Positions 1 to 17,142 are shown, counted from the first letter of the stretch. The stretch: DNA of 24,977 nt from a virus (IMGVR_UViG_2778261231_000008), one strand, 5' to 3'. Notes: a model not told the origin generated them from the letters alone. Numbers and translations: made by a program.

Positions 1-1053
1 TTACGGGGTAATGCCAACCGCTGCCGCCACTTTGTCGCCACTTGGCAATGTTGCCAGAGGATTGAAACGGAGCGCCGTTTCCAGATGATCCGGTGCCAGA
101 TGTGCGTAACGCATAGTCATTTTTATATCGTGGTGTCCGAGAATTTTTTGTAAGGCCAGGATGTTTCCACCCGACATCATGAAGTGCGCCGCAAAAGTAT
201 GGCGCAGAACGTGTGTCAGTTGACCGCGAGGGAGCACGATAGACGTTTTTTCCATCACGGATAAAAATTGAAAATAGCAGTCTGTGAAGAAATTGAACCC
301 ATCAAGCGCCATGATCTCTTCGTAAAGCTCTTTACTGATAGGGATGCTTCTGTTTTTCTTCCCCTTCGTTCTTACAAAGGTAATTCGGTATTTGGTCACC
401 TGTGAGCGGGTAAGATTTACGGCTTCTCTCCAGCGTGCGCCTGTGCTTAAGCATATCTTGACTACCAGAGCCAGAATTGGGTCCTGACGTTTGCAATCAG
501 CCAGTAATTCAACAATCTGCTCATGGGTAAGCCATGCCATCTCTTTTTCTGCGATGGTGAATTTTCGCATGTTCTCCAGTGGGTTCGGATACGACCATTC
601 GCCCAGACGGGATAGTTCGCTAAAAACACTACTTAGATAGCTTTGCTCCAGGTTAATGGTGACCGGGCTTGCTCCTTTCTTCCATTTCTCGCTGAAGTAG
701 ATCTCGCCTGTCAGGCGTTTATCTCGATAGTGGGCAAACATTTTAGAGGTGAGATCGGTTGCAAGAGGATTGCCTAGAGCGTCAACCATCAGCAGCAATT
801 TGTCATAGACATGCTGTCCAGCAGTCAGAGATTTACCATGTAGTTTGAACCATAGCTCAACCACGTCTTTCAGGGTTCGACGATCCACTGATTCGCCCAG
901 CCAGGGCTTTGATTCGGTTTCTTCCATCGTGTGACGCTCAAAAGCCAGAGCTTCGCCTTTGGTGGCGAATTGTTTACGCACACGACGCCCACTTCGTCCG
1001 GCGGGGTAACATTCGCAAAGCCATTTCCCTGTGGTGAGTTTTCGTACTGCCAT
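1..1053 (-). CDS. int: Tyrosine integrase (P2/186-like site-specific recombinase)
   Basis: 402-aa ORF in the track; the likely true start is the internal ATG at 1051..1053 (MAVRKLTTGKW...), preceded by a GGAGGG Shine-Dalgarno, giving 350 aa. The C-terminal region carries R..HxxR...Y tyrosine-recombinase signatures (LRHTFAAH, MRYAHL). Position at the prophage edge next to att. Confidence 0.88.
   Translation of the reverse strand: MAVRKLTTGKWLCECYPAGRSGRRVRKQFATKGEALAFERHTMEETESKPWLGESVDRRTLKDVVELWFKLHGKSLTAGQHVYDKLLLMVDALGNPLATDLTSKMFAHYRDKRLTGEIYFSEKWKKGASPVTINLEQSYLSSVFSELSRLGEWSYPNPLENMRKFTIAEKEMAWLTHEQIVELLADCKRQDPILALVVKICLSTGARWREAVNLTRSQVTKYRITFVRTKGKKNRSIPISKELYEEIMALDGFNFFTDCYFQFLSVMEKTSIVLPRGQLTHVLRHTFAAHFMMSGGNILALQKILGHHDIKMTMRYAHLAPDHLETALRFNPLATLPSGDKVAAAVGITP
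19..41. repeat. attL core: 23-bp direct repeat cgctgccgccactttgtcgccac, repeated at 22123..22145 with one mismatch
   Basis: Direct comparison of the two ends of the phage-like block; identity stops on both sides of the 23-mer. It overlaps the 3' end of the integrase ORF. Confidence 0.7.
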
Positions 1054-1241
1054 AAAAAATGCCCTCCAGTAGAGAGCATTTTTACTGTATGTATAACCAG
1101 TGTCAATGTATGAAATCCTACGACCATACATCTCACTGAAGCCATAATGAAGTTGGCTATTCTTTTTGCTATGTGAGCATGTAACTTTTGCGGTTAACCT
1201 GCGGCTCATTTTTATTTTAGACGCAGATATAAAAGCAAAAG

Positions 1242-1433
1242 TTATCGTGAGTTTTTAGTACAGATTTTTTTGGATTTACTAATAGTTCCATCATTGCAAA
1301 CGAATTTGCCATCTGAGGTACAGTGAGAAACACCTCCCTTTTTCCCTGAGCAGGGATAATTTCTAGCATAGGTAGTTAGTGGGTTTAATAACAAAGAACA
1401 TGACAAAACCACAAAAAATACCTTACCAAGCAT
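1242..1433 (-). CDS. Small Cys-rich protein with N-terminal hydrophobic signal-like segment (63 aa), function unknown
   Basis: ATG at 1431..1433 preceded by GGGAGGAAA; [16 protein letters not shown] hydrophobic N-terminus then a 6-Cys region; AT-rich by eye; sits between int and the repressor. Confidence 0.45.
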
Positions 1434-1448
1434 AGTTTCCTCCCGGTA

Positions 1449-2018
1449 CTATTTAACATACCTGACTGTTAAACTTATAATTTTACCAATTATTTCAATG
1501 TCTTCTATCTTGCATTCGAAGGCTCTGTTTCCACCCTCGACGAAGATTCTTCCACCGGGTAAACGAGTAATGTCACGGATCGTTATTTCGCCATCAATAC
1601 TTATTACCCATTTACCATCACGTATATCATCAAATTCTTTATCACAAATAAATTCAGAATTGTTATCTGTGATGACAAAAGGTTTTTTAAACGTAGAGGG
1701 TAGAAATCCCTTATCAAAAATATAAAAACCGTCTTTCTGCAATGCTCCATCAGACAATAAATATTTTTCTACTTCTATAGTATTTGTATTTGCTGATGCT
1801 TGCTTTGAACCATGCCCTGTTGTTAGCCAATTAAGCGAGGTGCCCGTTTCAAGGGCGCACTGGATTACCCAATCTGCTGGAAAAATATCACGCATATAGC
1901 GCGTTGCCATGGTGCTCTTAGAAACACCTAAATGATCACAGAGAGCCTGACGGGTACCGAACCCATATGCTTCAACTAAACGTTCTATGGCTTTCTTACC
2001 GCCGCTATTGAAATCCAC
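1449..2018 (-). CDS. cI: Phage 186 CI-like immunity repressor (HTH), no LexA-like S24 autocleavage motif seen
   Basis: The track ORF 1449..2105 begins with GTG; a GTG at 2016..2018 with an upstream GGAGG gives about 189 aa, matching 186 CI length. HTH region ...IERLVEAYGFGTRQALCDHLGVSKSTMATRY...CALETGTSLNWLTTG; no G-D/N-S-M peptidase motif. Start codon is uncertain. Confidence 0.65.
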   Translation of the reverse strand: MDFNSGGKKAIERLVEAYGFGTRQALCDHLGVSKSTMATRYMRDIFPADWVIQCALETGTSLNWLTTGHGSKQASANTNTIEVEKYLLSDGALQKDGFYIFDKGFLPSTFKKPFVITDNNSEFICDKEFDDIRDGKWVISIDGEITIRDITRLPGGRIFVEGGNRAFECKIEDIEIIGKIISLTVRYVK

Positions 2019-2163
2019 AAGTCCTCCAAAGAAATCCAAAATTCGTTGAAAGATTCCAAAAGCGATCTTAAAGTTGAACCAGAAGTGTTCTTTTGGAGCC
2101 TTCACTACTAATCACGACAAACAACGGCTCGCCACAAGCCATATCTAGAAGGAATGTTGCCTT

Positions 2164-2367
2164 ATGACACCTAACATTTCAATTACTCTGAATACACCAC
2201 ATGTCACAATCGAACGTTATAGCGAACTGACTGGCCTTTCTATTGATACGATTAACGACATGTTGGCTGATGGTCGACTACCTCGTCATCGTCTTCGTAA
2301 AGACAAAAAACGTGAAAAGGTAATGATTAACCTGGCTGCTCTGACTGTTGATGCTTTGTCTGCTTAA
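2164..2367 (+). CDS. apl: Apl/Cox-like excisionase / lytic-switch regulator (small HTH protein)
   Basis: 67-aa ORF divergent from the repressor; HTH-like segment [27 protein letters not shown] followed by a basic tail; position between cI and cII as in phage 186. Confidence 0.55.
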
Positions 2368-2431
2368 TAGACGTCTATTTTCGCAATAAGACGCTGAGTT
2401 CGATTTTGCGATAAGTTCGGAGTTGAAAACC

Positions 2432-2941
2432 ATGTTTGATTACCAAGTTTCCAAACATCCACATTTTGATGAAGCCTGTCGTGCATTCGCACTGCGCCAC
2501 AATCTGGTGCAACTGGCAGAACGTGCGGGCATGAATGTGCAGATTCTGCGGAACAAGCTGAACCCAGCTCAACCTCATTTATTAACCGCACCAGAAATCT
2601 GGCTGCTTACCGATCTGACTGAAGATTCAACGTTGGTAGATGGTTTTCTGGCACAGATTCATTGTCTGCCATGTGTACCGATTAATGAGGTAGCAAAAGA
2701 GAAACTGCCGCATTACGTCATGAGCGCAACTGCAGAGATCGGGCGTGTTGCAGCAGGTGCGGTATCTGGTGATGTAAAAACTAGTGCCGGTCGTCGTGAT
2801 GCTATCAGCAGCATTAACTCTGTAACACGACTGATGGCGCTGGCTGCTGTTTCATTGCAGGCCCGTTTACAGGCTAACCCTGCGATGGCGAGTGCAGTTG
2901 ATACTGTGACTGGCCTCGGTGCTTCATTCGGTTTGCTGTGA
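2432..2941 (+). CDS. cII: Phage 186 CII-like lysogeny establishment activator
   Basis: ATG at 2432 with GGAG 9 nt upstream (the track starts at an upstream TTG); 169 aa; sequence [23 protein letters not shown]...[24 protein letters not shown] recalls the 186 CII family; immediately downstream of apl. Confidence 0.7.
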
Positions 2942-2948
2942 GGTGCTT

Positions 2949-3245
2949 ATGCTGACGAAAGAACCATCATTTGCGTCGCTGCTGGTAAAACAAAGTCCGG
3001 CAATGCACTACGGTCACGGCTGGATCACGGGTGAGGATGGAAAACGCTGGCATCCATGTCATTCACAAGATGAATTGCTGTCTGAATTGACCACGAGGAA
3101 ACGGAGAAAGTCCAAATGTATGCGGCAGAAAGTGAAGTGGTTTATCAGTTTCGTTACAGAGGGGAGAGTTATTCAGTACCTGAAGATGATTTGCTCTGTT
3201 GCTATCCGTCATTGTCGGGCGATGGCAGTTACTTTTTCACGTTAA
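2949..3245 (+). CDS. Hypothetical early-region protein
   Basis: ORF from the ATG at 2949 (track ORF 2919..3245); overlaps the next ORF (3116..3340) in another frame by about 130 nt, so one of the two may be spurious or shorter. Confidence 0.3.
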   Translation: MLTKEPSFASLLVKQSPAMHYGHGWITGEDGKRWHPCHSQDELLSELTTRKRRKSKCMRQKVKWFISFVTEGRVIQYLKMICSVAIRHCRAMAVTFSR

Positions 3246-3340
3246 AGGATGGGATGTTTTTACGGGGAGTGCAGGTTAAAGAGACGATACGAAAAAATGT
3301 ATCTCCTCTTGAGCGTTACCGTAAGAACAAAGAACGATAG
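3116..3340 (+). CDS. Hypothetical early-region protein (74 aa)
   Basis: ATG at 3116 preceded by GGAGAAAG; a plausible small early gene, possibly in the fil/dhr position of 186-type phages. Confidence 0.4.
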   Translation: MYAAESEVVYQFRYRGESYSVPEDDLLCCYPSLSGDGSYFFTLKDGMFLRGVQVKETIRKNVSPLERYRKNKER

Positions 3341-3362
3341 CTGCGTTTGGGGGATATGAAGT

Positions 3363-3704
3363 ATGGCAATTAATGGCGCTGCAGCAACTGTTCCATTAAG
3401 CCCCGGTGAACGCCTGAATGGACTTAATCATATCGCGGAGTTAAGGGCGAAAGTTTTTGGCCTGAATATTGAGTCAGAGCTTGAGCGGTTTATTAAAGAT
3501 ATGCGTGATCCACGGGATATTAATAGCGAACAAAATAAACGGGCACTGGCTGCCATATTCTTTATGGCAAAAATTCCAGCTGAACGTCATAGCATCAGTA
3601 TTAATGAGCTGACCACTGACGAAAAGCGGGAGTTGATTAAAGTAATGAATCATTTTCGTGCAGTGGTGAGCTTATTTCCCAGACGGTTAACCATGCCGAA
3701 TTAA
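3363..3704 (+). CDS. Hypothetical phage early protein (113 aa)
   Basis: ATG at 3363 with an upstream G-rich Shine-Dalgarno; same orientation as the early operon. Confidence 0.5.
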   Translation: MAINGAAATVPLSPGERLNGLNHIAELRAKVFGLNIESELERFIKDMRDPRDINSEQNKRALAAIFFMAKIPAERHSISINELTTDEKRELIKVMNHFRAVVSLFPRRLTMPN

Positions 3705-3771
3705 CCAACTAATGAAATTAATGGCGTAAACCCGCCGGGCATCCCTTTATCTAAATTCAGGAGAATTGATT

Positions 3772-4005
3772 ATGCATAATATTGAAACCCTCACGACTAA
3801 AACCGGACCGGATGATGCAGGGCTTAATATTTTACTGACAGAGGCCCGTCTGGAAGAACGCCGGGCAAGGGCTGAAGCAATGGCAGCTCGCCTTGATAGC
3901 CTGGCGTGTCATATCACATCTCGCCAACTAAACCACGTCGAAGCGGCAGAACTGTTGCGTGTAACTGCTGAAGCAATCCAGAACGAAGCGCAGGAGATCC
4001 ACTAA
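3772..4005 (+). CDS. Hypothetical phage early protein (about 78 aa)
   Basis: ATG at 3772 preceded by AGGAG at 3758..3762 (the track starts at TTG 3766); the stop overlaps the next gene's start (ATGG). Confidence 0.5.
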   Translation: MHNIETLTTKTGPDDAGLNILLTEARLEERRARAEAMAARLDSLACHITSRQLNHVEAAELLRVTAEAIQNEAQEIH

Positions 4006-4232
4006 TGGCTGATGCAATGGATCTCGTACAGCAGCGCGTTGAAGAAGAACTCCAGCGCCATATTCGTGTTGCCCGTGCCAAAACACCGGGCGTGTCTCGC
4101 GTGCTTTGTATTGAATGTGAAGCGCCAATTCCGCCAGCACGACGCCGCGCCATTCCGGGAGTGCAGCTTTGCATTACCTGCCAGGAAATCGCAGAGCTGA
4201 AAGGCAAACATTACAACGGAGGTGCTGTATGA
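4005..4232 (+). CDS. TraR/DksA-family C4 zinc-finger protein
   Basis: 75 aa with CIECEAPIP...CITCQE (Cx2C-N17-Cx2C) near the C-terminus, typical of phage TraR/DksA-like proteins in P2-like early operons. Confidence 0.65.
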
Positions 4233-4531
4233 CAAGGGCAGTGCGTATCCATCAATTAAAAATTGCACCTAAGTATTTCAACGCTGTGGTTGCAGGTCAA
4301 AAGACGGCTGAACTTCGTAAAGACGATCGTGGCTATAAAGTTGGTGATGTTCTTTCTCTTTGCGAATGGAAGCATGGCGTATTTACGGGTAGGGAATGGG
4401 CCGCTGTTATCTCTCATGTGCTTCCGGTTAATGACGTCATGGCAGTTTCAGAACAATGGGTGATGCTATCAATTCGCCCATTAACCCCATTAGAAGCTTT
4501 AGGATATGTTATTGCAGGAGGTGCTGTATGA
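4229..4531 (+). CDS. Small ASCH/PUA-like domain protein (about 100 aa), tentative
   Basis: ATG at 4229 ([11 protein letters not shown]...) preceded by GGAGG and overlapping the upstream stop; segment [32 protein letters not shown] resembles ASCH/DUF3850-type proteins as I recall them. Confidence 0.45.
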
Positions 4532-7844: not shown

Positions 7845-7864
7845 TACTGTATATATAAACAGTA
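7845..7864. promoter_or_regulatory. LexA (SOS) box, TACTGTATATATAAACAGTA (CTGT-N8-ACAG)
   Basis: Near-perfect match to the LexA operator consensus, 17 nt upstream of the GTG start at 7881 and overlapping a likely -10 (TATAAA). Confidence 0.75.
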
Positions 7865-7880: not shown

Positions 7881-8066
7881 GTGAACGATTTGTTCATGGA
7901 GTCACTTGCACTGCAGCGGATAGAACTTATGGCCCGGCTGGTCGCCAGTTCAGATTGTAGCGATGACGACAAGGAGGTTGCGATTTCGTGGCTGTCGGAG
8001 CTGACGAGCGATCTGGTTACCAGGCTGAATGAATACGGAGTAGGGCAGGATGAGAGTACGCATTAG
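7881..8066 (+). CDS. SOS-regulated small protein (61 aa); possible Tum-like antirepressor or its remnant
   Basis: GTG start preceded by AAGGGGAGGGAG; lies directly downstream of the LexA box and of gene A, the position of the LexA-controlled tum operon in phage 186. No sequence-level recognition of Tum. Confidence 0.45.
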   Translation: MNDLFMESLALQRIELMARLVASSDCSDDDKEVAISWLSELTSDLVTRLNEYGVGQDESTH

Positions 8067-8248: not shown

Positions 8249-8267
8249 GGCGTGGCGGGGATACGAG
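8249..8267. other. Possible cos-site remnant (ggcgtggcggggatacgag)
   Basis: The first 13 nt match the 19-nt cohesive-end sequence of P2/186 as I recall it (GGCG[A/T]GGCGGGGAAAGCA...), then it diverges; lies in a GC-rich non-coding stretch between the SOS gene and the cargo cassette. Confidence 0.25.
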
Positions 8268-8401: not shown

Positions 8402-10423
8402 ATGAGCAGTTTTTATTATATCCAGCCGGAATTAAAAAACGATTTTAATGCAAGTTTTTTGAATTCTTTGGAAGAGTATTCCAATCGAAAACAGTTGCAG
8501 GTATATGCTATAAAAAATCCTCTCGGGGAAAATAAGTATAACTATGATAGAGATGACGTTCTGGTGTTATTAAGCCCCGGATGCAAAATGGCATTTATTA
8601 ATTTCGGAGATAATAGTGATGAGTTTGAAAATTTCCAAGAGGATTTTGTCGAGGATTTAGGCTCACTATCTGATAAATACAATTATAAAGATACAATTGG
8701 AAGACCACGTGAATGGCGTCGTAACCTGGTCTCGGATTTTATATTCAATGATATCGATGACGATTTAGATGCGTTTTTTGATGAGATTAAACTCGCGGAT
8801 GGATCGCTTGCAAAAAAGAGCGAGTTAATCATCTCGTTGTTGACTGGTAGTATAAACAATATTGATAAAGTAAAAGGGAATGTTCCTGACAATATCCTTG
8901 ATAAAGTTAAGCAAAAAATAATTTTATTTGATGGAGATCAAACTAGATTTGTATATCAGAAGTTTGATAAGAAAAAAGTAATTATTCAAGGGCTTTCAGG
9001 CACGGGCAAGACAGAACTTTTGCTTCACAAGTTGAAAGAAATATATTTGGATAAGAATAATCATGATAGTAAAATAATGTTTACATGTCATAATAAAATC
9101 TTGGCAGATAGTATGAGAAAGAGGATTCCAGAGTTCTTCAACTTTATGAAAGTTGAACAACAAATTAGCTGGAATGATAGATTGTGGTGTGTAAACGCTT
9201 GGGGATCACAATACGATAATAATTCTGGGGCTTATCGTTATATCTGTGAAGCCTATGGGATAAATTTTCATCGCTTCAGCTATGTCATGACCTTTGATAG
9301 AGTTTGTCGCTTAGCATTGGAAGAAATAAGAAAAATCCCTGAAGGTCAATTCAAACATTGCTTTGATTTTATGTTGGTCGATGAAAGTCAGGATTTTCCA
9401 TCAAGTTTTATCGAGCTTTGTGAGTTAGTAACTCGCGATACACTGTATGTAGCAGGTGATATATTTCAAAGTATATTTGATACCAATATTTCTAATGAAA
9501 TCCAACCTGATTTTTTATTGAGTAAGTGTTACAGAACTGACCCGAGAACTTTAATGTTTGCCCATGGAATTGGCATGGGGTTATTTGAGAGTGAGCCTCT
9601 CACATGGCTCGAAAATGACGAGTGGGAAGCATGTGGCTATATTGTGGACCATTTTGAACGTGCCAAGTTGAGATTGAAACGTGAGCCATTACGTAGATTT
9701 GAAGATGTGACTGATGCCAAAATCCATAGTGTTGAATTAGTTAATTCGACATTTGATACTGAAGAAAAAAACATCTTGGATTTATTGCATAAAATCAAAG
9801 CAGAGAATCCAACTGTTCTAGCTGACGATATCGGTATTATTTTTATCGATAAGGCTAAAAGTATCTTCACTATTGCCGATAAGCTTGAAGTCAGTGTTCC
9901 AAGAATTTTTGGTTGGAAAGTGAATAAGGCTTATGAAACCAAAGAAAAAGTAAAGGATACTTTATTTCTTAGTAATAAAAATCATGTAAAGGGGTTGGAG
10001 TTCCCATTTGTTATTTGTGTTACGCGAGATATTAGTAGAAGCCATTCAGATCGAAATTCTTTATATATGATGCTGACTCGATCCTTTATTCGTTCCTATT
10101 TGCTTTTAGGTGATCGTGATGAAAGTCTTCAGGCTGAAATTCAGCGGGGGTTAGAAAACATTAATGCTCATGGCTATATGGAAATTACCATTCCTCCTCA
10201 AGATGTTATCGAAAGAATAAGGACTACAATTAAGTTTGACGAGAAAAGTATTTCCCATTATGACTTGGTGTCTAAGGTGTTCGATGATCTCAATATTGAG
10301 GCTATATTCAGGCCGTCACTATATGAAATTGTGAAGAATATTCTTCCAGACTCTTTTGATGTTGAAAGGATATCAAAAGTCATTTTGTTTAATTACGAAG
10401 AAATGCTTCAGGAGACAAAATGA
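8402..10423 (+). CDS. SF1 (UvrD/Rep-like) helicase-family ATPase with an unassigned ~190-aa N-terminal domain; candidate anti-phage defence protein
   Basis: 673 aa. Walker A GLSGTGKT (nt 8990..9013), motif II LVDESQDF (9374..9397), motif III GDIFQSIF, motif IV CYRTD, C-terminal motif-VI-like MMLTRSFIRSYLL. Visibly AT-rich codon usage unlike the flanking phage genes. Sits between gene A and the portal gene. Confidence 0.75.
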   Translation: MSSFYYIQPELKNDFNASFLNSLEEYSNRKQLQVYAIKNPLGENKYNYDRDDVLVLLSPGCKMAFINFGDNSDEFENFQEDFVEDLGSLSDKYNYKDTIGRPREWRRNLVSDFIFNDIDDDLDAFFDEIKLADGSLAKKSELIISLLTGSINNIDKVKGNVPDNILDKVKQKIILFDGDQTRFVYQKFDKKKVIIQGLSGTGKTELLLHKLKEIYLDKNNHDSKIMFTCHNKILADSMRKRIPEFFNFMKVEQQISWNDRLWCVNAWGSQYDNNSGAYRYICEAYGINFHRFSYVMTFDRVCRLALEEIRKIPEGQFKHCFDFMLVDESQDFPSSFIELCELVTRDTLYVAGDIFQSIFDTNISNEIQPDFLLSKCYRTDPRTLMFAHGIGMGLFESEPLTWLENDEWEACGYIVDHFERAKLRLKREPLRRFEDVTDAKIHSVELVNSTFDTEEKNILDLLHKIKAENPTVLADDIGIIFIDKAKSIFTIADKLEVSVPRIFGWKVNKAYETKEKVKDTLFLSNKNHVKGLEFPFVICVTRDISRSHSDRNSLYMMLTRSFIRSYLLLGDRDESLQAEIQRGLENINAHGYMEITIPPQDVIERIRTTIKFDEKSISHYDLVSKVFDDLNIEAIFRPSLYEIVKNILPDSFDVERISKVILFNYEEMLQETK

Positions 10424-11055
10424 CAAAAGAATATTATTTTAGCCTTGATCAATCTCAATGCGATTGGGCTTTTAAGGCAATTAGAAATAAAAAAGATGTT
10501 ATTGAAATATTAATGAGGGTTTTAAAGACAATTTCAGTATACACTGAACCATCAGCCGATAAAGTTGCTGGTAAGATGAAGTTACATATATCAAAGATGA
10601 GTCGTGTTTTCTTTTTTAGTGAAGGGAAATACTATTCGTTAGCATTCCCCTTTACGCTGGAAGTTAGTGGAGATAATCTTTGCTTCTGTAGCGGTGAAAT
10701 TGAAGTTATTGACAGTTACATTACTTCTAAAGTGCTTGCGATTATTAATGATTCTTCCTATCTCAACCCATCTCTTTGGGCATTTTTTGAGCCACTAGTA
10801 GAGCTTGAGGATCATCAAACTATTCCAGGATTTTGGCAATTTTTCAAAATGCTGCTTACGCATGAGGATGGATACATCAGATATGATGTTGACCCAGATC
10901 CGAGACGATTAGATCCAAGGAGTCACCCTTTACATCATTTTGATGTTTTCTATTCCAATCAGCCAACGTTCAAAATTGGTCTAAGAGAACATTATACTAA
11001 TGATGATATGATTGACTTATTAAATAGAGAAACTGATTGTCATTTTTTTGAATGA
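10420..11055 (+). CDS. Hypothetical 211-aa protein translationally coupled to the helicase; candidate partner/effector
   Basis: Start ATG overlaps the helicase stop (ATGA at 10420..10423); AT-rich; no motif I recognise. Confidence 0.65.
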   Translation: MTKEYYFSLDQSQCDWAFKAIRNKKDVIEILMRVLKTISVYTEPSADKVAGKMKLHISKMSRVFFFSEGKYYSLAFPFTLEVSGDNLCFCSGEIEVIDSYITSKVLAIINDSSYLNPSLWAFFEPLVELEDHQTIPGFWQFFKMLLTHEDGYIRYDVDPDPRRLDPRSHPLHHFDVFYSNQPTFKIGLREHYTNDDMIDLLNRETDCHFFE

Positions 11056-11097: not shown

Positions 11098-11802
11098 TTA
11101 TAATAAGTAGTCTGTAAATTGGATTATATCTTGGTCCAGATAGGTGTTTAATTCTTCAATTCTTTTTTGCAGTGGTAATAACTCATTTCGAACAAAAACA
11201 TTCGCCGCCTTTTCCACATCCCCAAACCCCCCAACATTACTTGGCATAATCCCCATCATCTGCGGTGGTACACGGTGTGCCGCCATCATGTCATCCCGGC
11301 TCACGTTCTTAATGTTCAAAAACTCATCCTTTGCCGCCACTTCTGACAGTGGAATGATCTGAATGCCATCCTTTTTGCCGTTTGGCGAGTACATAAACAG
11401 GTTGCGGAAATTGCCCGGACCTTTGGCGCTTTTCATGGCCTGGCGGATGTTGTTCACGTCCTCCTGGTTCTGCGCGGCGTCAGTCATATACATAATAAAA
11501 CCCGCGTGACTGCCATTGATGTAATACTTCCGGCGGAACAGCGTGGCTGACTCGTTCAGCAGGGCGGAAGGGATAGCGGACAGATATTCCGGCAGGCCGT
11601 AAATCTCCTGGTTCAAATCTGGCTCCATCAGGTGAAAGATGCTGCCTTTGGTAAACTCATACGGCTGCGTGGTCATGCCGTATTGCACAAACCAGTAGGT
11701 GTCTAAATCGATCCCGCGGCGGGTGTATTTCGCCAGCGATGGCTCCAGTGACAGAATCCCGCCCAGTCGGTTCGTCCGTTTCTCCAGGTAACCTGCAGAA
11801 AG
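11098..11802 (-). pseudogene. Q: Portal protein (P2 gpQ family), C-terminal ~234 aa only
   Basis: Portal-like sequence (...FRRKYYINGSHAGFIMYMTDAAQ...HRVPPQMMGIMPSNVGGFG...) ends at the native stop (11098). The N-terminal ~56 aa of the track ORF is GC-rich low-complexity translation of the antisense of gene S, so the 5' part is deleted. Confidence 0.7.
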
Positions 11803-12230
11803 TTGACGCCTGGCTGGCGGCGCTGCTGGCAAATCTGGAACCAGCGGCGCGAAAGCGAATGATGCTGGAGCTGGCGCAACAGCTGCGCCGGAATCAGCAG
11901 AACAACATCCGCCTGCAGCGCAATCCTGATGGGACTGGCTACGAGCCGCGCCGGGTAACGGCCCGAACAAAGAAGGGTCGCATTAAGCGGCAGATGTTCG
12001 CCAAACTCCGCACCACGAAATACCTTAAAACCGCCGCCAGTGCCGACTCTGCCAGCGTAGAGTTTGCCGGGCAGGTACAGCGCATCGCACGGGTGCATCA
12101 TTACGGCTTACGGGATCGTGTAAGCCGTAAGGGGCCGGAGGTGCGGTATACAGAGCGGCGGTTGCTTGGGATAACTGATAATGATCATGAGATGATTAAA
12201 TCAAGCATACTAGGTTTTTTGATTAAGTAG
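11739..12230 (+). pseudogene. S: Tail completion / virion morphogenesis protein S homologue, nearly full length but without its native start
   Basis: From about nt 11799 the ORF reads like P2 S / Mu G family (RNQQNNIRLQRNPDGTGYEPRR...FAGQVQRIARVHHYGLRD). The first ~18 codons are antisense of portal sequence, so the deletion endpoint is at the S start. Confidence 0.55.
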
Positions 12231-13389
12231 TCTGATCTTTTTCTTTAAAATAACCTTCAATTTTTGCAATTAAAAGACTGATGCTTTCTATAAAGTTTTT
12301 TGTTTCGCTCTCACTTGGTTCATGATGAGTGTGTGCGATTTTATCCCGTAAGTTTTTTCGATTCTCATTGGCTGTTTGCCATTCTAGCTGAGCAATCTCT
12401 GGCACAGATATATTGAACTGTTGTCTAAATAGTTGTTTGCACCTTACCTCAAATTTCCAGTTTTTGTTTAGAATGGCCTTAGTTTCGCATTCATCATGGC
12501 CTTTCTTATTAAGTTCATTGATTAGCAATCTAAGGATGTAGCTTTCAAGTCCAGCTGAAGCTTCGATTACGGCAGATCTTAACGCCCCTTTATGAACAAG
12601 GTTGTTCGCTCTAATTATTAATAATTCAGGGTGTTCATTGAATTCATCTGTCATTAATCGACGTTTAAAATCTTCAATCTGAATTTCATTATGATTGTAC
12701 CAACTATTTCGCATTAGTGGTGTTATTATTCCAACCATAGGTATTGAGCTTACCTTAACTCCATCACAGTAATGTTCTTGCAATACGCCGTTAGTGAAAC
12801 CTAACCCTGCTTGATAAAGAGATATTTCATCAGCGAATTGATCATTGAAGGCTACTCTATACTGCTTTATAAAGTGGTTGATTATACCTATGCATTCTTC
12901 AGATTGTTTGGGCGGAAATATCTCTCTAGCAGTTTTTTTGATACTTTCGAGTTTTGCTACCTTCTCAATATCTAAATTGTCCATCGTAGCTATGTGCTCT
13001 TTGGCCTCATCTTCAGATGGGTAATTGTCACCGCTTCGGATCTGACTTCTAATAGTGTTGATAAATTCCTCTTCTGAAAGTTCAGATAGAACCGCGCATT
13101 CGGCAACACTGGCAAGGGAAATTACAGTGCGGCATTTCATTATTCCTCTGTCGTTTAATATGTGTGGTGTTAATTGTTCCTTGGTTCCGAGCAACAAGGT
13201 TTGTGGGAAAAGATAAGCATCTTTGAATAATGTATAATAATCATTGTGTACAGTTAAACAAAGTTCAGTGTGTTCATAAATAAAATTATATATCCCATCG
13301 GGAATGTTCAGGACATACGGTAATTCAACTAAATAACGAGCCGCGAAAATCATGTGGTCCATCTCCATATGAGAATTGCATTGTGCCAT
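12223..13389 (-). CDS. Hypothetical 388-aa cargo protein with a C-terminal Rx4H (HEPN-like) motif; candidate abortive-infection/defence gene
   Basis: AT-rich reverse-strand ORF between S and V (the orf30 position of P2). Motif RDKIAH at nt 12331..12348. Start uncertain: the ATG at 13351..13353 has the better Shine-Dalgarno (GGAGA). Confidence 0.6.
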   Translation of the reverse strand: MAQCNSHMEMDHMIFAARYLVELPYVLNIPDGIYNFIYEHTELCLTVHNDYYTLFKDAYLFPQTLLLGTKEQLTPHILNDRGIMKCRTVISLASVAECAVLSELSEEEFINTIRSQIRSGDNYPSEDEAKEHIATMDNLDIEKVAKLESIKKTAREIFPPKQSEECIGIINHFIKQYRVAFNDQFADEISLYQAGLGFTNGVLQEHYCDGVKVSSIPMVGIITPLMRNSWYNHNEIQIEDFKRRLMTDEFNEHPELLIIRANNLVHKGALRSAVIEASAGLESYILRLLINELNKKGHDECETKAILNKNWKFEVRCKQLFRQQFNISVPEIAQLEWQTANENRKNLRDKIAHTHHEPSESETKNFIESISLLIAKIEGYFKEKDQTT

Positions 13390-13399
13390 TCGCTACACA
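13382..13399 (+). promoter_or_regulatory. TGT-N12-ACA dyad (tgtgccattcgctacaca), possible Ogr-dependent late promoter element for V
   Basis: Fits the TGT-N12-ACA half-site spacing of P2 late promoters as I recall it, but the centre lies only ~55 nt from the V start codon, closer than expected; a possible -10 (TAAATAT) at 13431..13437. Confidence 0.2.
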
Positions 13400-13444
13400 T
13401 TGCCACAAAGATGAAAAAAAATCCTGCTTTGTAAATATACGAGC

Positions 13445-14023
13445 ATGAACGCACAACTCACAGAAATCATGCGCCTTATCACCAACCTGATCCGCACCGG
13501 AACTGTAACGCAAGTGGACCGGGACAACTGGCTGTGCCGGGTGAAAACGGGCGACCTCGAAACCAACTGGATTAACTGGCTGACGCTGCGTGCGGGCAAT
13601 TCACGCACCTGGTGGAAACCGTCCGTGGGGGAGCAGGTTGTGCTGTTCAGCCTGGGCGGCAATCTGGAAACCGCGTTTGCGCTGCCTGCTGTCTACTCAA
13701 ATCAGTTTCCTCCCCCGTCCGATTCTGAGGACGGCAGCGTGACGGAATACCCGGACGGCGGCTGGTTTGAGTACGAGCCTTCAACCGGGCGCTGGTACGT
13801 CCGGGGCATCAAGTCGATGGTTATCGAGGCGTCGGATAACGTCACCTTTAAAACCGGGGAATTTGTCGTGGAAGCTGACACCACCCGCATTAATAGCGAC
13901 GTGGTGATCAACGGGGCTGTCACCCAGGGCGGCGGCCCGATGAGTTCTAATGGGATCGTGGTGGATGACCATGCGCACAACAAAGTGAAGTCCGGCGGCG
14001 AGACATCAGGAGGCCCGGTATGA
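13445..14023 (+). CDS. V: Baseplate spike/assembly protein V
   Basis: 192 aa; close to P2 gpV (IRTG..., WLTxRAGxSRTWWxPSVGEQV, C-terminal SSNG...H.HxxGG). Confidence 0.88.
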   Translation: MNAQLTEIMRLITNLIRTGTVTQVDRDNWLCRVKTGDLETNWINWLTLRAGNSRTWWKPSVGEQVVLFSLGGNLETAFALPAVYSNQFPPPSDSEDGSVTEYPDGGWFEYEPSTGRWYVRGIKSMVIEASDNVTFKTGEFVVEADTTRINSDVVINGAVTQGGGPMSSNGIVVDDHAHNKVKSGGETSGGPV

Positions 14024-14379
14024 CGATGTATTCCGGCATGAGTAGTGCCACGGGCAAGGCCATCACCGACACCGAACATCTGCGCCAGTCCGTGAAGGAC
14101 ATCCTGGTCACCCCGCAGGGCAGCCGTATTGCGCGCCGGGAATACGGTTCGCTGCTGTCTGCCCTGATTGACCAGCCACAAAACCCGGCACTGCGTCTGC
14201 AGATGATGAGCGCGGTGTACGTGGCGCTGATGCGCTGGGAGCCACGGCTGACGCTGGATGCTATCGCCATCGACAGCAGTTTTGACGGTTCGATGGTGGT
14301 CGAGCTGACCGGGCGGCGTACCGACGGCGCGCCCGTTTCCCTTTCCGTATCAACAGGAGCAGGTAATGGCAGTTATTGA
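14020..14379 (+). CDS. W: Baseplate protein W (GPW/gp25 family)
   Basis: 119 aa; start overlaps the V stop; P2 gpW-like (PxGSRxxRRxYGSLL...DQPQxPAL). Confidence 0.85.
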   Translation: MTMYSGMSSATGKAITDTEHLRQSVKDILVTPQGSRIARREYGSLLSALIDQPQNPALRLQMMSAVYVALMRWEPRLTLDAIAIDSSFDGSMVVELTGRRTDGAPVSLSVSTGAGNGSY

Positions 14380-15274
14380 CCTTTCCCAGCTACCGCCGCC
14401 GCAGATTGTGGATGTGCCGGACTTTGAGACGCTGCTGGCTGAGCGTAAAGCGGCGTTTGTGGCGCTGCACCCGGCTGACCAGCAGGACGCGGTGCGCCGC
14501 ACACTGGCGCTGGAATCTGAACCGATTACCAAACAGCTGCAAGAAAGTGCCTACCGGGAAATCCTTCTGCGCCAGCGTATCAACGAGGCGGCGCTGGCGG
14601 TGATGGTGGCCTATGCCAACAGCAGCGACCTGGAGCAGCTCGGCGCTAATTACAACGTTAAGCGCCTCACGGTCACGCCTGCAGATAATGATGCCGTGCC
14701 GCCCGTGGCGGCGGTGATGGAAACCGACGAAGCGCTACGCCTGCGCATCCCGGCAGCCTTTGAGGGGCTGTCTGTGGCGGGACCCACGGCGGCCTACGAG
14801 TTTCACGCCAAAAGTGCCGACGGGCGCGTGGCAGATGCCAGCGCAACCAGCCCGGCCCCGGCTGAGGTAGTGCTGACCGTATTAAGCCGGGAGGGTGACG
14901 GCACGGCGGATGCAGACCTGCTGGCAGTGGTGGAAAAAGCGCTGAGCAGCGAGAGCGTGCGCCCGGTGGCTGACCGCCTGACGGTGCGCGGGGCTTCCAT
15001 TGTGAATTACAGCGTACGCGCCTTGCTCTATCTCTATCCAGGGCCGGAGTCTGAACCCATTCTGGAAGCGGCAAGGGCAAGCCTGCAGAAGTACATCGCC
15101 AGCCAGACCCGGCTGGGGCGGGATATTCGCCTGAGCGCTATCTATGCGGCCCTGCATGTTGAGGGCGTGCAGCGGGTGGAACTGCTTTCGCCGCTGGCGG
15201 ACGTGGTGCTGGATAAAACCCAGGCCGCCTCCTGCACTGACTGGAGCGTGAGCATTGGGGGCACGGATGAATAG
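14366..15274 (+). CDS. J: Baseplate assembly protein J
   Basis: 302 aa; MAVIDLSQLPPP... and FEGLSVAG...GRSADGRVAD...LYLYPGPESEPI match P2 gpJ. Confidence 0.9.
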   Translation: MAVIDLSQLPPPQIVDVPDFETLLAERKAAFVALHPADQQDAVRRTLALESEPITKQLQESAYREILLRQRINEAALAVMVAYANSSDLEQLGANYNVKRLTVTPADNDAVPPVAAVMETDEALRLRIPAAFEGLSVAGPTAAYEFHAKSADGRVADASATSPAPAEVVLTVLSREGDGTADADLLAVVEKALSSESVRPVADRLTVRGASIVNYSVRALLYLYPGPESEPILEAARASLQKYIASQTRLGRDIRLSAIYAALHVEGVQRVELLSPLADVVLDKTQAASCTDWSVSIGGTDE

Positions 15275-15872
15275 CCTGCTGCCGCCTGGTTCGTCAGCAC
15301 TTGAGCGCCGACTGGCGGAGAGCTGCAGCGGCATTTCCGATCTGCAGGTGCCCCTGCGTGACCTCTGGAGCCCGGCAACGTGTCCGGTTGCCTTTTTGCC
15401 GTATCTGGCATGGGCATTTTCCGTGGACCGCTGGGACGAAAGCTGGGCGGAAAGCGTGAAACGCCGGGTGGTGCAGGATGCCTTTTACATTCATCAGCAC
15501 AAGGGCACAACCAGCGCCGTGCGGCGGGTGGTGGAGCCGTTCGGTTTCCTGATCCGCATTCTGGAGTGGTGGCAGACCAACGAGGCCCCCGGCACGTTCC
15601 GGCTGGACATTGGCGTGCAGGACCAGGGGATTACGGAGGAAACCTATCTGGAGCTGGAGCGCCTGATCGGTGACGCCAAACCCTGCAGCCGCCATCTGAT
15701 TGGCATGTCAATCAACCTGCAGACGAGCGGCCCGTTTTGGGTAGGGGCTGGCACCTACATCGGGGAGGAAATCACCGTCTACCCGTATATCAACGAAACC
15801 ATTACTTCCGGCGGCCCGGCCTTTGCGGGCGGGGCGGTCCATGTTATTGACACAGTGAGAGTGAACCCATGA
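15267..15872 (+). CDS. I: Baseplate/tail protein I
   Basis: Start at the ATG at 15267 (MNSLLPPGSS...), internal to the track ORF; LPxLAWAFSVDRWDE...GTFRLDIGV matches P2 gpI. Confidence 0.85.
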   Translation: MNSLLPPGSSALERRLAESCSGISDLQVPLRDLWSPATCPVAFLPYLAWAFSVDRWDESWAESVKRRVVQDAFYIHQHKGTTSAVRRVVEPFGFLIRILEWWQTNEAPGTFRLDIGVQDQGITEETYLELERLIGDAKPCSRHLIGMSINLQTSGPFWVGAGTYIGEEITVYPYINETITSGGPAFAGGAVHVIDTVRVNP

Positions 15873-16717
15873 GCGCAAAATTTTACACCCTGCTGACGGA
15901 CATTGGCGCGGCAAAACTGGCAAGTGCTGCCGCGCTCGGTGTCCCGCTGAAAATTACCAAAATGGCAGTGGGCGACGGGGGCGGTGTGCTGCCGACACCC
16001 AGCGCGCAGCAGACTGGCCTGATTGCAGAAAAGCGCCGCGCCGACCTGAATATGCTCTACATCGACCCGCAGAACAGCAGCCAGATTATTGCGGAGCAGG
16101 TTATTCCTGAAACGGAAGGCGGTTGGTGGATTCGTGAAGTCGGGCTGTTTGATGAGACAGGCGCGCTGATTGCCGTCGGCAACTGCCCTGAAAGCTACAA
16201 GCCGCAGCTGGCGGAGGGCAGCGGGCGCACACAGACCGTGCGCATGGTGCTGATCACCAGTAGCACCGATAACATCACCCTGAAAATTGACCCGGCGGTG
16301 GTGCTGGCAACTCGCAAGTATGTAGATGACAAGGTGCTTGAGCTAAAGGTGTACGTGGATGACCAGATGGCGAAACATATCGCCGCGGTTGATCCCCATA
16401 CGCAGTATGCGCCAAAGACTAGCCCGACCTTTACCGGAACACCAAAAGCACCCACTGCGGCGTCAGGCAATAACACCACCCAGCTTGCCACCACGGCATT
16501 TGTGCAGGCCGCTATTGCGGCGCTGGTCAATTCCTCCCCTGGCGCACTGGACACGCTGAACGAGCTGGCTGCAGCGCTGGGCAATGATCCGAACTTCGCC
16601 ACCACCATGACCAATGCGCTTGCGGGGAAAATGGGTAAGGCTGCCAATCGGCCTGTAGTAACCCATAACGGTGCGGGCTACCGCGCCAGAACTCACTTTT
16701 TCAGGACAAGAACATGA
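15869..16717 (+). pseudogene. H: Tail fibre protein H, N-terminal ~254 aa only
   Basis: N-terminal and conserved middle block (...SSPGALDTLNELAAALGNDPNFATTMTNALAGK) match P2 gpH; after about nt 16630 the frame runs ~28 unrelated codons to a stop. P2 H is about 670 aa. Confidence 0.8.
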
Positions 16718-17016
16718 GCGACAAAACAAACGAAAAAACTGTGGTACTGGATACGCCAATCCTGCGCGGCAAAAGCGAAATCAAAGAGGTGGTGCTGCGT
16801 AAACCCCAGTCTGGTGCGCTGCGTGGCACCCGCCTGCAGGCCATTATGGATATGGACGTGGGCGCGATGATGACCATCATTCCGCGAATCTCCAGCCCGA
16901 CGCTGACCCCGCAGGAAATGGCGGAGCTGGACCCGGCAGACCTCACCGCAATGTCCGTGGAGGTGGTCACTTTTTTGTTGAAGAAGTCGGTGCTTGCCGA
17001 TTTGCCGACAGCCTGA
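16714..17016 (+). CDS. E: Tail assembly chaperone E
   Basis: 100-aa ORF upstream of the tape-measure gene, carrying the slippery heptamer T_TTT_TTG. Confidence 0.8.
   Translation: MSDKTNEKTVVLDTPILRGKSEIKEVVLRKPQSGALRGTRLQAIMDMDVGAMMTIIPRISSPTLTPQEMAELDPADLTAMSVEVVTFLLKKSVLADLPTA
16971..16977 (+). other. Programmed -1 frameshift site T_TTT_TTG producing the E' (E+E') product that terminates at 17150
   Basis: My manual -1 frame translation from 16977 runs open to a TGA at 17148..17150, overlapping the T start; this mirrors the E/E' arrangement in P2. Confidence 0.7.
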
Positions 17017-17142
17017 CGGTTGATGACCTGGTGGCAGATATTGCCACCATTTTTCACTGGCCGCCGTCCGTCACTGACGTTATGCCGCTGACTGAGGTGC
17101 TGGAGTGGCGGCATAAAGCAATCCTGAGAAGCGGGGCCAGCG

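Follow-up and report, generated by a model that had tools for sequence, protein, structure and literature searches.

A 3-kb deletion joining tail fibre gene H to the end of tail tube gene FII in a defective P2-like prophage of Escherichia coli

Introduction

Phages of the P2/186/Fels-2 group carry their tail genes in the order V-W-J-I-H-G / FI-FII-E-E'-T-U-D-ogr, replicate by means of gpA, possess a 186-type CI/cII switch and combine an Ogr-type zinc-finger activator with TGT-N12-ACA promoter boxes. This motif is the consensus of the four Ogr-dependent late promoters of P2, namely PP, PO, PV and PF (PMC3931495). The cos-proximal interval between gpA and gpQ is a hotspot where anti-phage systems are found (Rousset et al. 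2022, PMC9122126). The decay of prophages by deletion has been reviewed (PMC6379469), and surveys of gene classes in incomplete prophages indicate that lysis, terminase and portal genes are preferentially lost (PMC7744054).

The stretch of 24,977 nucleotides analyzed here in full (IMGVR_UViG_2778261231_000008; the window) resembles this group in its gene order, from which G, FI and FII are lost, as well as in its activator, its promoter boxes, its gpA and its immunity switch. A preliminary description, made from the sequence alone, had proposed that a deletion truncated the tail fibre gene H and joined it to the region upstream of E. By comparing the window with near-identical intact prophages, we found that this deletion is real and inherited.

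Results

The window contains a P2-like prophage adjoining ybjL

The right end of the window (21.5-25 kb) is at least 99% identical to E. coli chromosomes and includes ybjL, ybjM and grxA; the window is a piece of E. coli chromosome with a P2/186/Fels-2-like prophage adjoining ybjL. On its left side, Pfam searches revealed a tyrosine integrase (Phage_integrase), a 186-type CI repressor (Phage_CI_repr and Phage_CI_C), cII (CP76), a Dam methylase and gpA (Phage_GPA, E = 7e-128), that is, the integrase, repressor switch and gpA rolling-circle replication expected of P2-like phages (Peduoviridae). Membership of this family is also indicated by the syntenic series V, W, J, I, H...E, E', T, U, D and then ogr, recognized by Pfam and alignments, and by an Ogr/Delta activator (Ogr_Delta, E = 7.9e-21) accompanied by a TGT-N12-ACA box upstream of V. 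All of these tail genes lie on the plus strand. The baseplate genes V (13445-14023), W (14020-14379), J (14366-15274) and I (15255-15872) are intact and match Phage_base_V, GPW_gp25, Baseplate_J and Tail_P2_I, respectively. Equally intact are the tail assembly chaperone gene E (16714-17016; Phage_TAC_7), whose product is 100% identical to that of the intact parent, T (17143-19884; PhageMin_Tail, the tape measure), U (19881-20366; Phage_P2_GpU), D (20363-21460; Phage_GPD) and ogr (21528-21743), and the E' frameshift extension ORF (17031-17150) was located by translation. Hence the genes that the preliminary description had listed as retained, comprising V, W, J, I, the tape measure gene, U and D as well as int, the repressor switch (CI/cII), dam, A and the accessory genes, were all found, the tail genes (E, T and ogr included) with Pfam support, and E does start at 16714, as it had claimed.

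The nearest deposited phage is Salmonella phage RE-2010 (Felsduovirus), with about 81% DNA identity over the tail region, and among complete RefSeq E. coli genomes (n = 5,426) the tail region had no match above about 86% identity. The intact form of the prophage is listed in 85 blocks of a collection of draft and run assemblies, as against its absence from the 5,426 complete RefSeq genomes.

Intact siblings define the breakpoints

An exact look-up of the 282-aa ORF that contains the junction led to a 90% cluster with 471-aa tail-fibre proteins of E. coli, and a look-up of one 471-aa member led to intact prophages at the same ybjL-adjacent site in four other assemblies (L009-L012). Further intact copies of the same prophage were found at the ybjL flank (L014 and L016-L019). 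Examples of these siblings, taken from L009-L012 and L014, are GCA_013065125.1, GCA_011931235.1, GCA_025283215.1 and ENA ERZ27257929. In the intact prophage the genes follow the order S, a 376-aa accessory gene, V, W, J, I, H, G, FI, FII, E, T, U, D and ogr, with H of 471 aa (including a Collar domain), G of 198 aa, FI of 390 aa and FII of 171 aa. The intact sibling is 99.9-100% identical to the window over S, the accessory gene between S and V, V-I, H residues 1-260 and E-T-U-D-ogr, and like the window it carries a helicase gene paired with a gene for a 211-aa protein between A and Q; unlike the window, it has a full H, G, the terminator of G, the FI promoter box, FI, FII and the head/lysis region. 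Aligned with L009, the window falls into two blocks, 11789-16651 (99.96% identity) and 16645-24233 (99.99% identity); the blocks share a few bases at their ends, and about 3 kb of L009 falls between them.

The early/immunity region (window 46-4232) is mosaic: it is only 88-95% identical to L014, L017 and L019, while the late region exceeds 99.9%. Judged by this comparison, the fetched siblings appear to be close relatives among which the exact intact parent with the early region of the window is not represented, so that the exact parental genome was not recovered. The window also has an additional 100-aa DUF3850/ASCH gene (about 4229-4531) that is absent from L014, L017 and L019.

Relative to L009, the deletion measures 3,051 bp and is clean, with no inserted bases. 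Base-by-base extension gave identity on the left up to 16647 (10779 in L009) and on the right from 16645 (13828 in L009), and the junction (16645-16647) is a 3-bp CAA microhomology common to both parental flanks. Around CAA the parental sites are loosely alike (CAAnnGGnCTG, 8 of 11 positions), the perfect match being only 3 bp long. Neither inserted bases nor an IS element nor a recombinase gene was found at the junction. The deletion extends from H codon 260 to 14 nt before the FII stop, and the sole remaining piece of the tail tube gene consists of its last 14 nt, CAATCGGCCTGTAG, including the TAG stop (16645-16658, plus strand; the FII end at 13841 in L009 corresponds to 16658).

The near-identical intact relatives confirm that H is cut short and continues directly into the sequence preceding E. 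They also correct two values of the preliminary description, which had placed the break at about 16630 and had H kept to about residue 254: the break lies at 16645-16647 and H is kept to residue 260. The H-derived coding sequence runs to N260 (...TNALAGKMGKAAN), five to six codons past K254, which marks the end of homology to the 81%-identical RE-2010. Mapping onto RE-2010 itself put the breaks at 16629 and 16648, where homology resumes ten bases before the end of the tube gene, with a gap of 4,551 bp; it was rejected because of the 81% identity and of the extra genes that RE-2010 has between G and FI. Two E. coli prophages closer than RE-2010, HZ13 and Z226-5, placed the break at about 16638-16648 and were still too divergent to fix its position.

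Genes lost and the fusion ORF

Missing as a result of the deletion are the C-terminal half of H, the gene for the fibre chaperone (G) with the terminator-like hairpin behind it, the putative late promoter of FI, the sheath gene (FI) itself and most of FII. The loss of G, FI and FII stands as described before, save for the last 14 nt of FII. The 'Z/fun slot' had been counted among the losses too, but the parental interval between G and FI is a 131-bp spacer without a gene, so no gene was lost there. Homologues of sheath and tube elsewhere in the element, which had been named as evidence against the proposal, were not found in the window: tblastn searches with the G, FI, FII, head, terminase-fragment and lysis proteins of the parent gave no match (best E-values, 0.17-5). 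Among the proteins of the intact parent used as tblastn queries, only S (residues 3-148), H (1-260) and E matched, and a C-terminal portal fragment remains. The full morphogenetic set (Q, P, O, N, M, L, lysis, R, S, G, FI and FII) is not present in the window, which, to judge from its genes, holds a defective derivative and not a complete phage. The loss of particle-forming capacity put forward earlier is borne out by gene content, since capsid, terminase, lysis, sheath and tube functions are not encoded.

What is left of H forms, with the sequence beyond the junction, a truncated tail-fibre ORF of 282 aa (H'; 15869-16717, plus strand), composed of H residues 1-260, which match the intact 471-aa H at 100% in tblastn, and 22 out-of-frame residues, RPVVTHNGAGYRARTHFFRTRT. 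The stop codon of H', TGA, overlaps the start codon of E (ATGA, 16714-16717). The out-of-frame tail is a translation of the last 14 nt of FII and of the native 55-nt spacer between FII and E (16659-16713, plus strand), a spacer that is whole and identical to that of L009. H' keeps the baseplate-proximal Phage_tail_fib domain (Pfam match over residues 1-150 only) and part of the shaft, and the Collar/receptor-binding part is gone; PHROG tail-fibre profiles were matched over only their first 255 or so of about 600 positions. PADLOC and PHROG scans of H' returned tail-fibre N-terminal matches only and no defence assignment. The H' fusion ORF is non-functional.

Between the FII stop and the E start lies a hairpin (16670-16687) with a GC-rich 7-bp stem (GGTGCGG gcta CCGCGCC), whose position is conserved in RE-2010, HZ13 and Z226-5 with sequence changes. 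The predicted fold of 81 nt around it did not differ significantly from shuffled sequences (z = -1.55), and no T-run follows. This hairpin may be an intra-operon attenuator or a processing site.

A further deletion removed the head and lysis genes

A first deletion, of 7,638 bp relative to the intact sibling L014, has its junction at 11789-11790 with a 2-bp TA microhomology, and joins a portal fragment (minus strand, 11098-11790) to S from codon 3. The resulting S' ORF (11739-12230; 163 aa) consists of out-of-frame upstream sequence fused to S from that codon. The portal N-terminus, terminase, O, N, M, L, X, holin, endolysin, LysA/B/C and R were lost. Thus, for both the 3,051-bp and the 7,638-bp event there is a near-identical intact relative from which the window differs by a clean internal deletion. 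Exact look-ups with both fusion proteins showed the two deletions together wherever a contig was of sufficient length, and no strain with only one of them was found, so that the two may have arisen in either order, and independently or not.

The junction recurs in one lineage and other strains carry other lesions

The exact 282-aa H' and an identical 56-nt junction were present in eight independent samples, namely two NCBI assemblies (GCA_900604275.1 and GCA_050522925.1) and six Logan run assemblies (SRR5336204, SRR21909477, SRR17233222, ERR11175665, ERR4843704 and SRR31115535). One of the carriers is a 1.26-Mb contig that passes through the whole element into host genes. The copies differ from the window by 0-2 mismatches, so the eight carriers seem to form a single lineage that inherited one event. 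A 601-bp junction query against the 5,426 complete RefSeq E. coli genomes found no place covering at least 80% of it. A scan for the exact 43-mer of the junction in a collection with one genome per species gave no match either, a result that is uninformative given that composition.

The contigs of SRR5336204, SRR17233222, ERR4843704 and SRR31115535 all end at 16863, inside E, and two assemblies start at about 8419-8427. Such fixed contig ends suggest that the sequence is repeated elsewhere in those genomes; the repeat is possibly a second P2-like prophage able to supply the missing functions in trans.

Other strains carry different lesions of the same prophage. There is an 11.5-kb deletion from N into FII in GCA_012252145.1 (L013/L030), a 14.2-kb deletion from P into FII in GCA_050616775.1 (L035), which may be nested on the former, and inversions joining the portal gene to J in GCA_052028265.1 (L020). 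Given these different deletions and inversions, decay of this prophage is recurrent. The three deletions, that of the window included, have their right ends within the 516-bp FII and keep E-T-U-D-ogr, which could hint at a constraint or at a selected function that preserves these genes; the pattern is weakened by ascertainment through the look-up of E and by the possible nesting.

Putative late promoters and operon layout

A putative Ogr-dependent late promoter, PV, is retained 46 nt before V as the TGT-N12-ACA box TGTGCCATTCGCTACACA (13382-13399, plus strand). The parental spacer between G and FI contains a box of the same form, TGTGCCATTCTCCACACA, identical at 15 of 18 positions to that upstream of V, and, directly after G, a terminator-like hairpin, CCCCGCctcgtGCGGGG, followed by ATTTTT. 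Since the motif is no commoner in the window than chance would allow (4 found against 5.8 expected), what supports the promoter assignment is the location of the boxes, their resemblance to each other and the published consensus. No sigma-70 promoter was predicted by a scan, in line with late promoters that depend on an activator. Nor was a terminator-like site detected between H' and E, the FII-E hairpin not being scored as a terminator. From this layout, E-E'-T-U-D would have no promoter of their own and would now stand directly downstream of V-W-J-I-H'; their transcription, if any, would come only from PV.

Age of the deletions and the accessory genes

The retained late region differs from the intact L009 by 1 base in 9,958 bp (one mismatch over 11789-16647 and none over 16645-21743), and intact copies differ among themselves by 3-10 bases per 13 kb. 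As the single difference is within the spread of the intact copies, both deletions are very recent and arose later than the variation seen among intact prophages. The tail genes V, W, J, I, E, T, U and D are no more damaged than the cargo, and no inactivating mutation was seen in the remaining phage genes.

Two accessory loci accompany the phage genes. The first comprises a helicase gene (8402-10423, plus strand; 673 aa, SF1, UvrD-like; PADLOC PDLC03002, E = 4.7e-28) and an overlapping gene for a 211-aa protein (10420-11055, plus strand) that has no Pfam or PADLOC match; the pair also occurs in many intact copies and is listed in 140 blocks of the collection. The second is an ORF between S and V (12223-13389, minus strand) of 388 aa (376 aa elsewhere), without a Pfam match, which belongs to phrog_28299 (E = 3e-192, unknown function) and has a marginal PADLOC match, PD-T4-2_B (E = 9e-4). 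The same place is occupied by a DUF6216 gene in HZ13, by one for a 'nucleotide-binding protein' in Z226-5 and by one for a hypothetical protein in RE-2010, so among P2-like prophages it is a variable accessory slot.

Signals related to induction and packaging

A near-consensus LexA box, TACTGTATATATAAACAGTA (7845-7864), lies just upstream of a 61-aa DinI/Tum-like ORF (7881-8066, plus strand), which strongly matches phrog_698 (unknown function) and weakly the DinI-like phrog_189 (E = 7.7e-5). The arrangement resembles the SOS-controlled Tum antirepressor of phage 186, and by analogy the remnant may have kept a response to DNA damage. A putative cos-like string, GGCGTGGCGGGGATACGAG (8249-8267), which would resemble the 186/P2 cohesive-end sequence, is situated between gpA and the accessory genes. 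With up to 3 mismatches allowed, no match was obtained for the P2 cos 19-mer. If the string is cos, the accessory pair would lie between cos and Q.

Discussion

The deletion from H into FII was very probably a spontaneous, RecA-independent, illegitimate event of 3,051 bp in an integrated P2-like prophage, which is now defective and at an early point of its decay. It could have arisen by slippage at replication or by end-joining at the 3-bp microhomology, between H codon 260 and the end of FII. Combined with the 7.6-kb head/terminase/lysis deletion, it would have produced a defective prophage passed on vertically in one E. coli lineage, and the deletion itself would have no function beyond being a step in prophage decay. 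By our own calculation, a microhomology of at least 3 bp is expected in about 5% of random junctions; that of the window is typical of illegitimate deletion, is only slightly above random joining and does not amount to proof, so we infer the mechanism rather than demonstrate it.

Two other accounts of the junction were considered. A collapsed or chimeric join made during assembly would be in keeping with the several short-read contigs that end at one base, 16863, 216 bp to the right of the junction, an observation that suggests repeated sequence nearby in those genomes. Nevertheless, the identical 56-nt junction came from eight samples processed through different pipelines (NCBI submitters and Logan), and both of its flanks align with a single intact prophage that occupies the same position in the chromosome. 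The chance of an artefact is therefore practically negligible, and the misassembly that the preliminary description had named as a possible refutation did not materialize. It is also extremely unlikely that the event was site-specific or transposon-mediated, through a Gin/Cin-type tail-fibre invertase or an IS-adjacent deletion. Some P2/Fels-2-type phages, such as RE-2010, do have extra genes between G and FI, reversed fibre-chaperone fragments among them, but the parent has only 131 bp there, with no invertase and no IS. Its H-FI region contains no serine invertase gene, the junction displays only a 3-bp direct microhomology without inserted sequence, and the endpoints lie inside two unrelated coding sequences, all of which argues against a site-specific event.

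The remaining accounts concern why the remnant looks as it does. It had been proposed that the cargo genes are the functions retained in the remnant. In an extended form of this proposal, costly phage functions were lost and the accessory (defence-like) genes or E-T-U-D-ogr were kept for the benefit of the host. Consistent with it, the first deletion took out lysis, terminase and portal genes, the classes preferentially lost according to PMC7744054, neither deletion touches the two accessory loci, of which one occupies the gpA-gpQ hotspot with a gene matching the PADLOC 'Helicase' model, and three deletions in this prophage family end inside FII. However, the H-FII deletion removed nothing lethal or harmful to a host lysogen, one substitution in 9,958 bp leaves too little time for purifying selection to become visible, the retained structural genes are as intact as the cargo, and no function is established for the cargo genes, two of them (of three) having neither a Pfam nor a PADLOC assignment. 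One of the three FII-ending deletions may moreover be nested, and a look-up of E finds only copies that keep E. Because the deletions are too recent, the retention pattern cannot show selection for cargo; it carries no signal of selection either way, and the earlier proposal is unsupported as it was stated. Although host-level selection for the first deletion is plausible, selection or domestication as an account of the remnant seems rather unlikely to us. More improbable still is that the 21.7-kb remnant is a helper-dependent mobilisable element or an early-stage defence island, induced and packaged together with its accessory loci by a co-resident P2-like phage. Such an element would need parts that are indeed kept (int, the CI/cII switch, the LexA-boxed Tum-like gene, gpA, the cos-like site and ogr), and the fixed contig breaks hint at a second related prophage in some carrier genomes. 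On the other hand, no satellite-type hijacking genes were noted, and of the traits of P4-like or PICI satellites only the putative cos-like string was seen, the element retaining eight tail genes and replicating through a phage gpA where such satellites have a primase-type replication of their own. In addition, the copies are essentially clonal, as expected for vertical inheritance and not for transfer, and their flank, where visible, is always the same site. The H-FII deletion is most simply explained as neutral deletional decay.

Beyond annotation, the significance of the locus is small; what the analysis supplies are base-exact breakpoints and a near-identical intact parent. Prediction tools that call the locus 'intact' or 'questionable' from its tail genes would be wrong. 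The strain pair illustrates neatly how prophage decay begins in nature, with two clean microhomology deletions and no other damage. It also calls for caution, as the survival of cargo beside deletions is no sign of selection if a single SNP separates the remnant from an intact phage.

Among known systems, R-type tailocins share with the window a P2-type baseplate, tape measure, U and D without capsid genes, but the window lacks the sheath, the tube, a complete fibre, the fibre chaperone and the lysis cassette. We ruled out a tailocin on the basis of tblastn, which found no homologue of FI, FII, holin or endolysin in the window; with no genes for sheath, tube or lysis, the element could presumably neither assemble a contractile particle nor release one. 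In comparison with the P2/186/Fels-2 group, two of the four late operons of the window are gutted and the other two would be fused. The extra small genes that RE-2010 has in the slot between G and FI are absent from the true parent. The closest likeness is to defective ('cryptic' or 'grounded') prophages, which have lost lysis, terminase, portal and structural genes, keep integrase and accessory genes and are inherited vertically. A defective P2-like prophage formed by clean internal deletions is a well-known kind of object, and the window differs from other such prophages in being very young, with no sign yet of domestication or further erosion.
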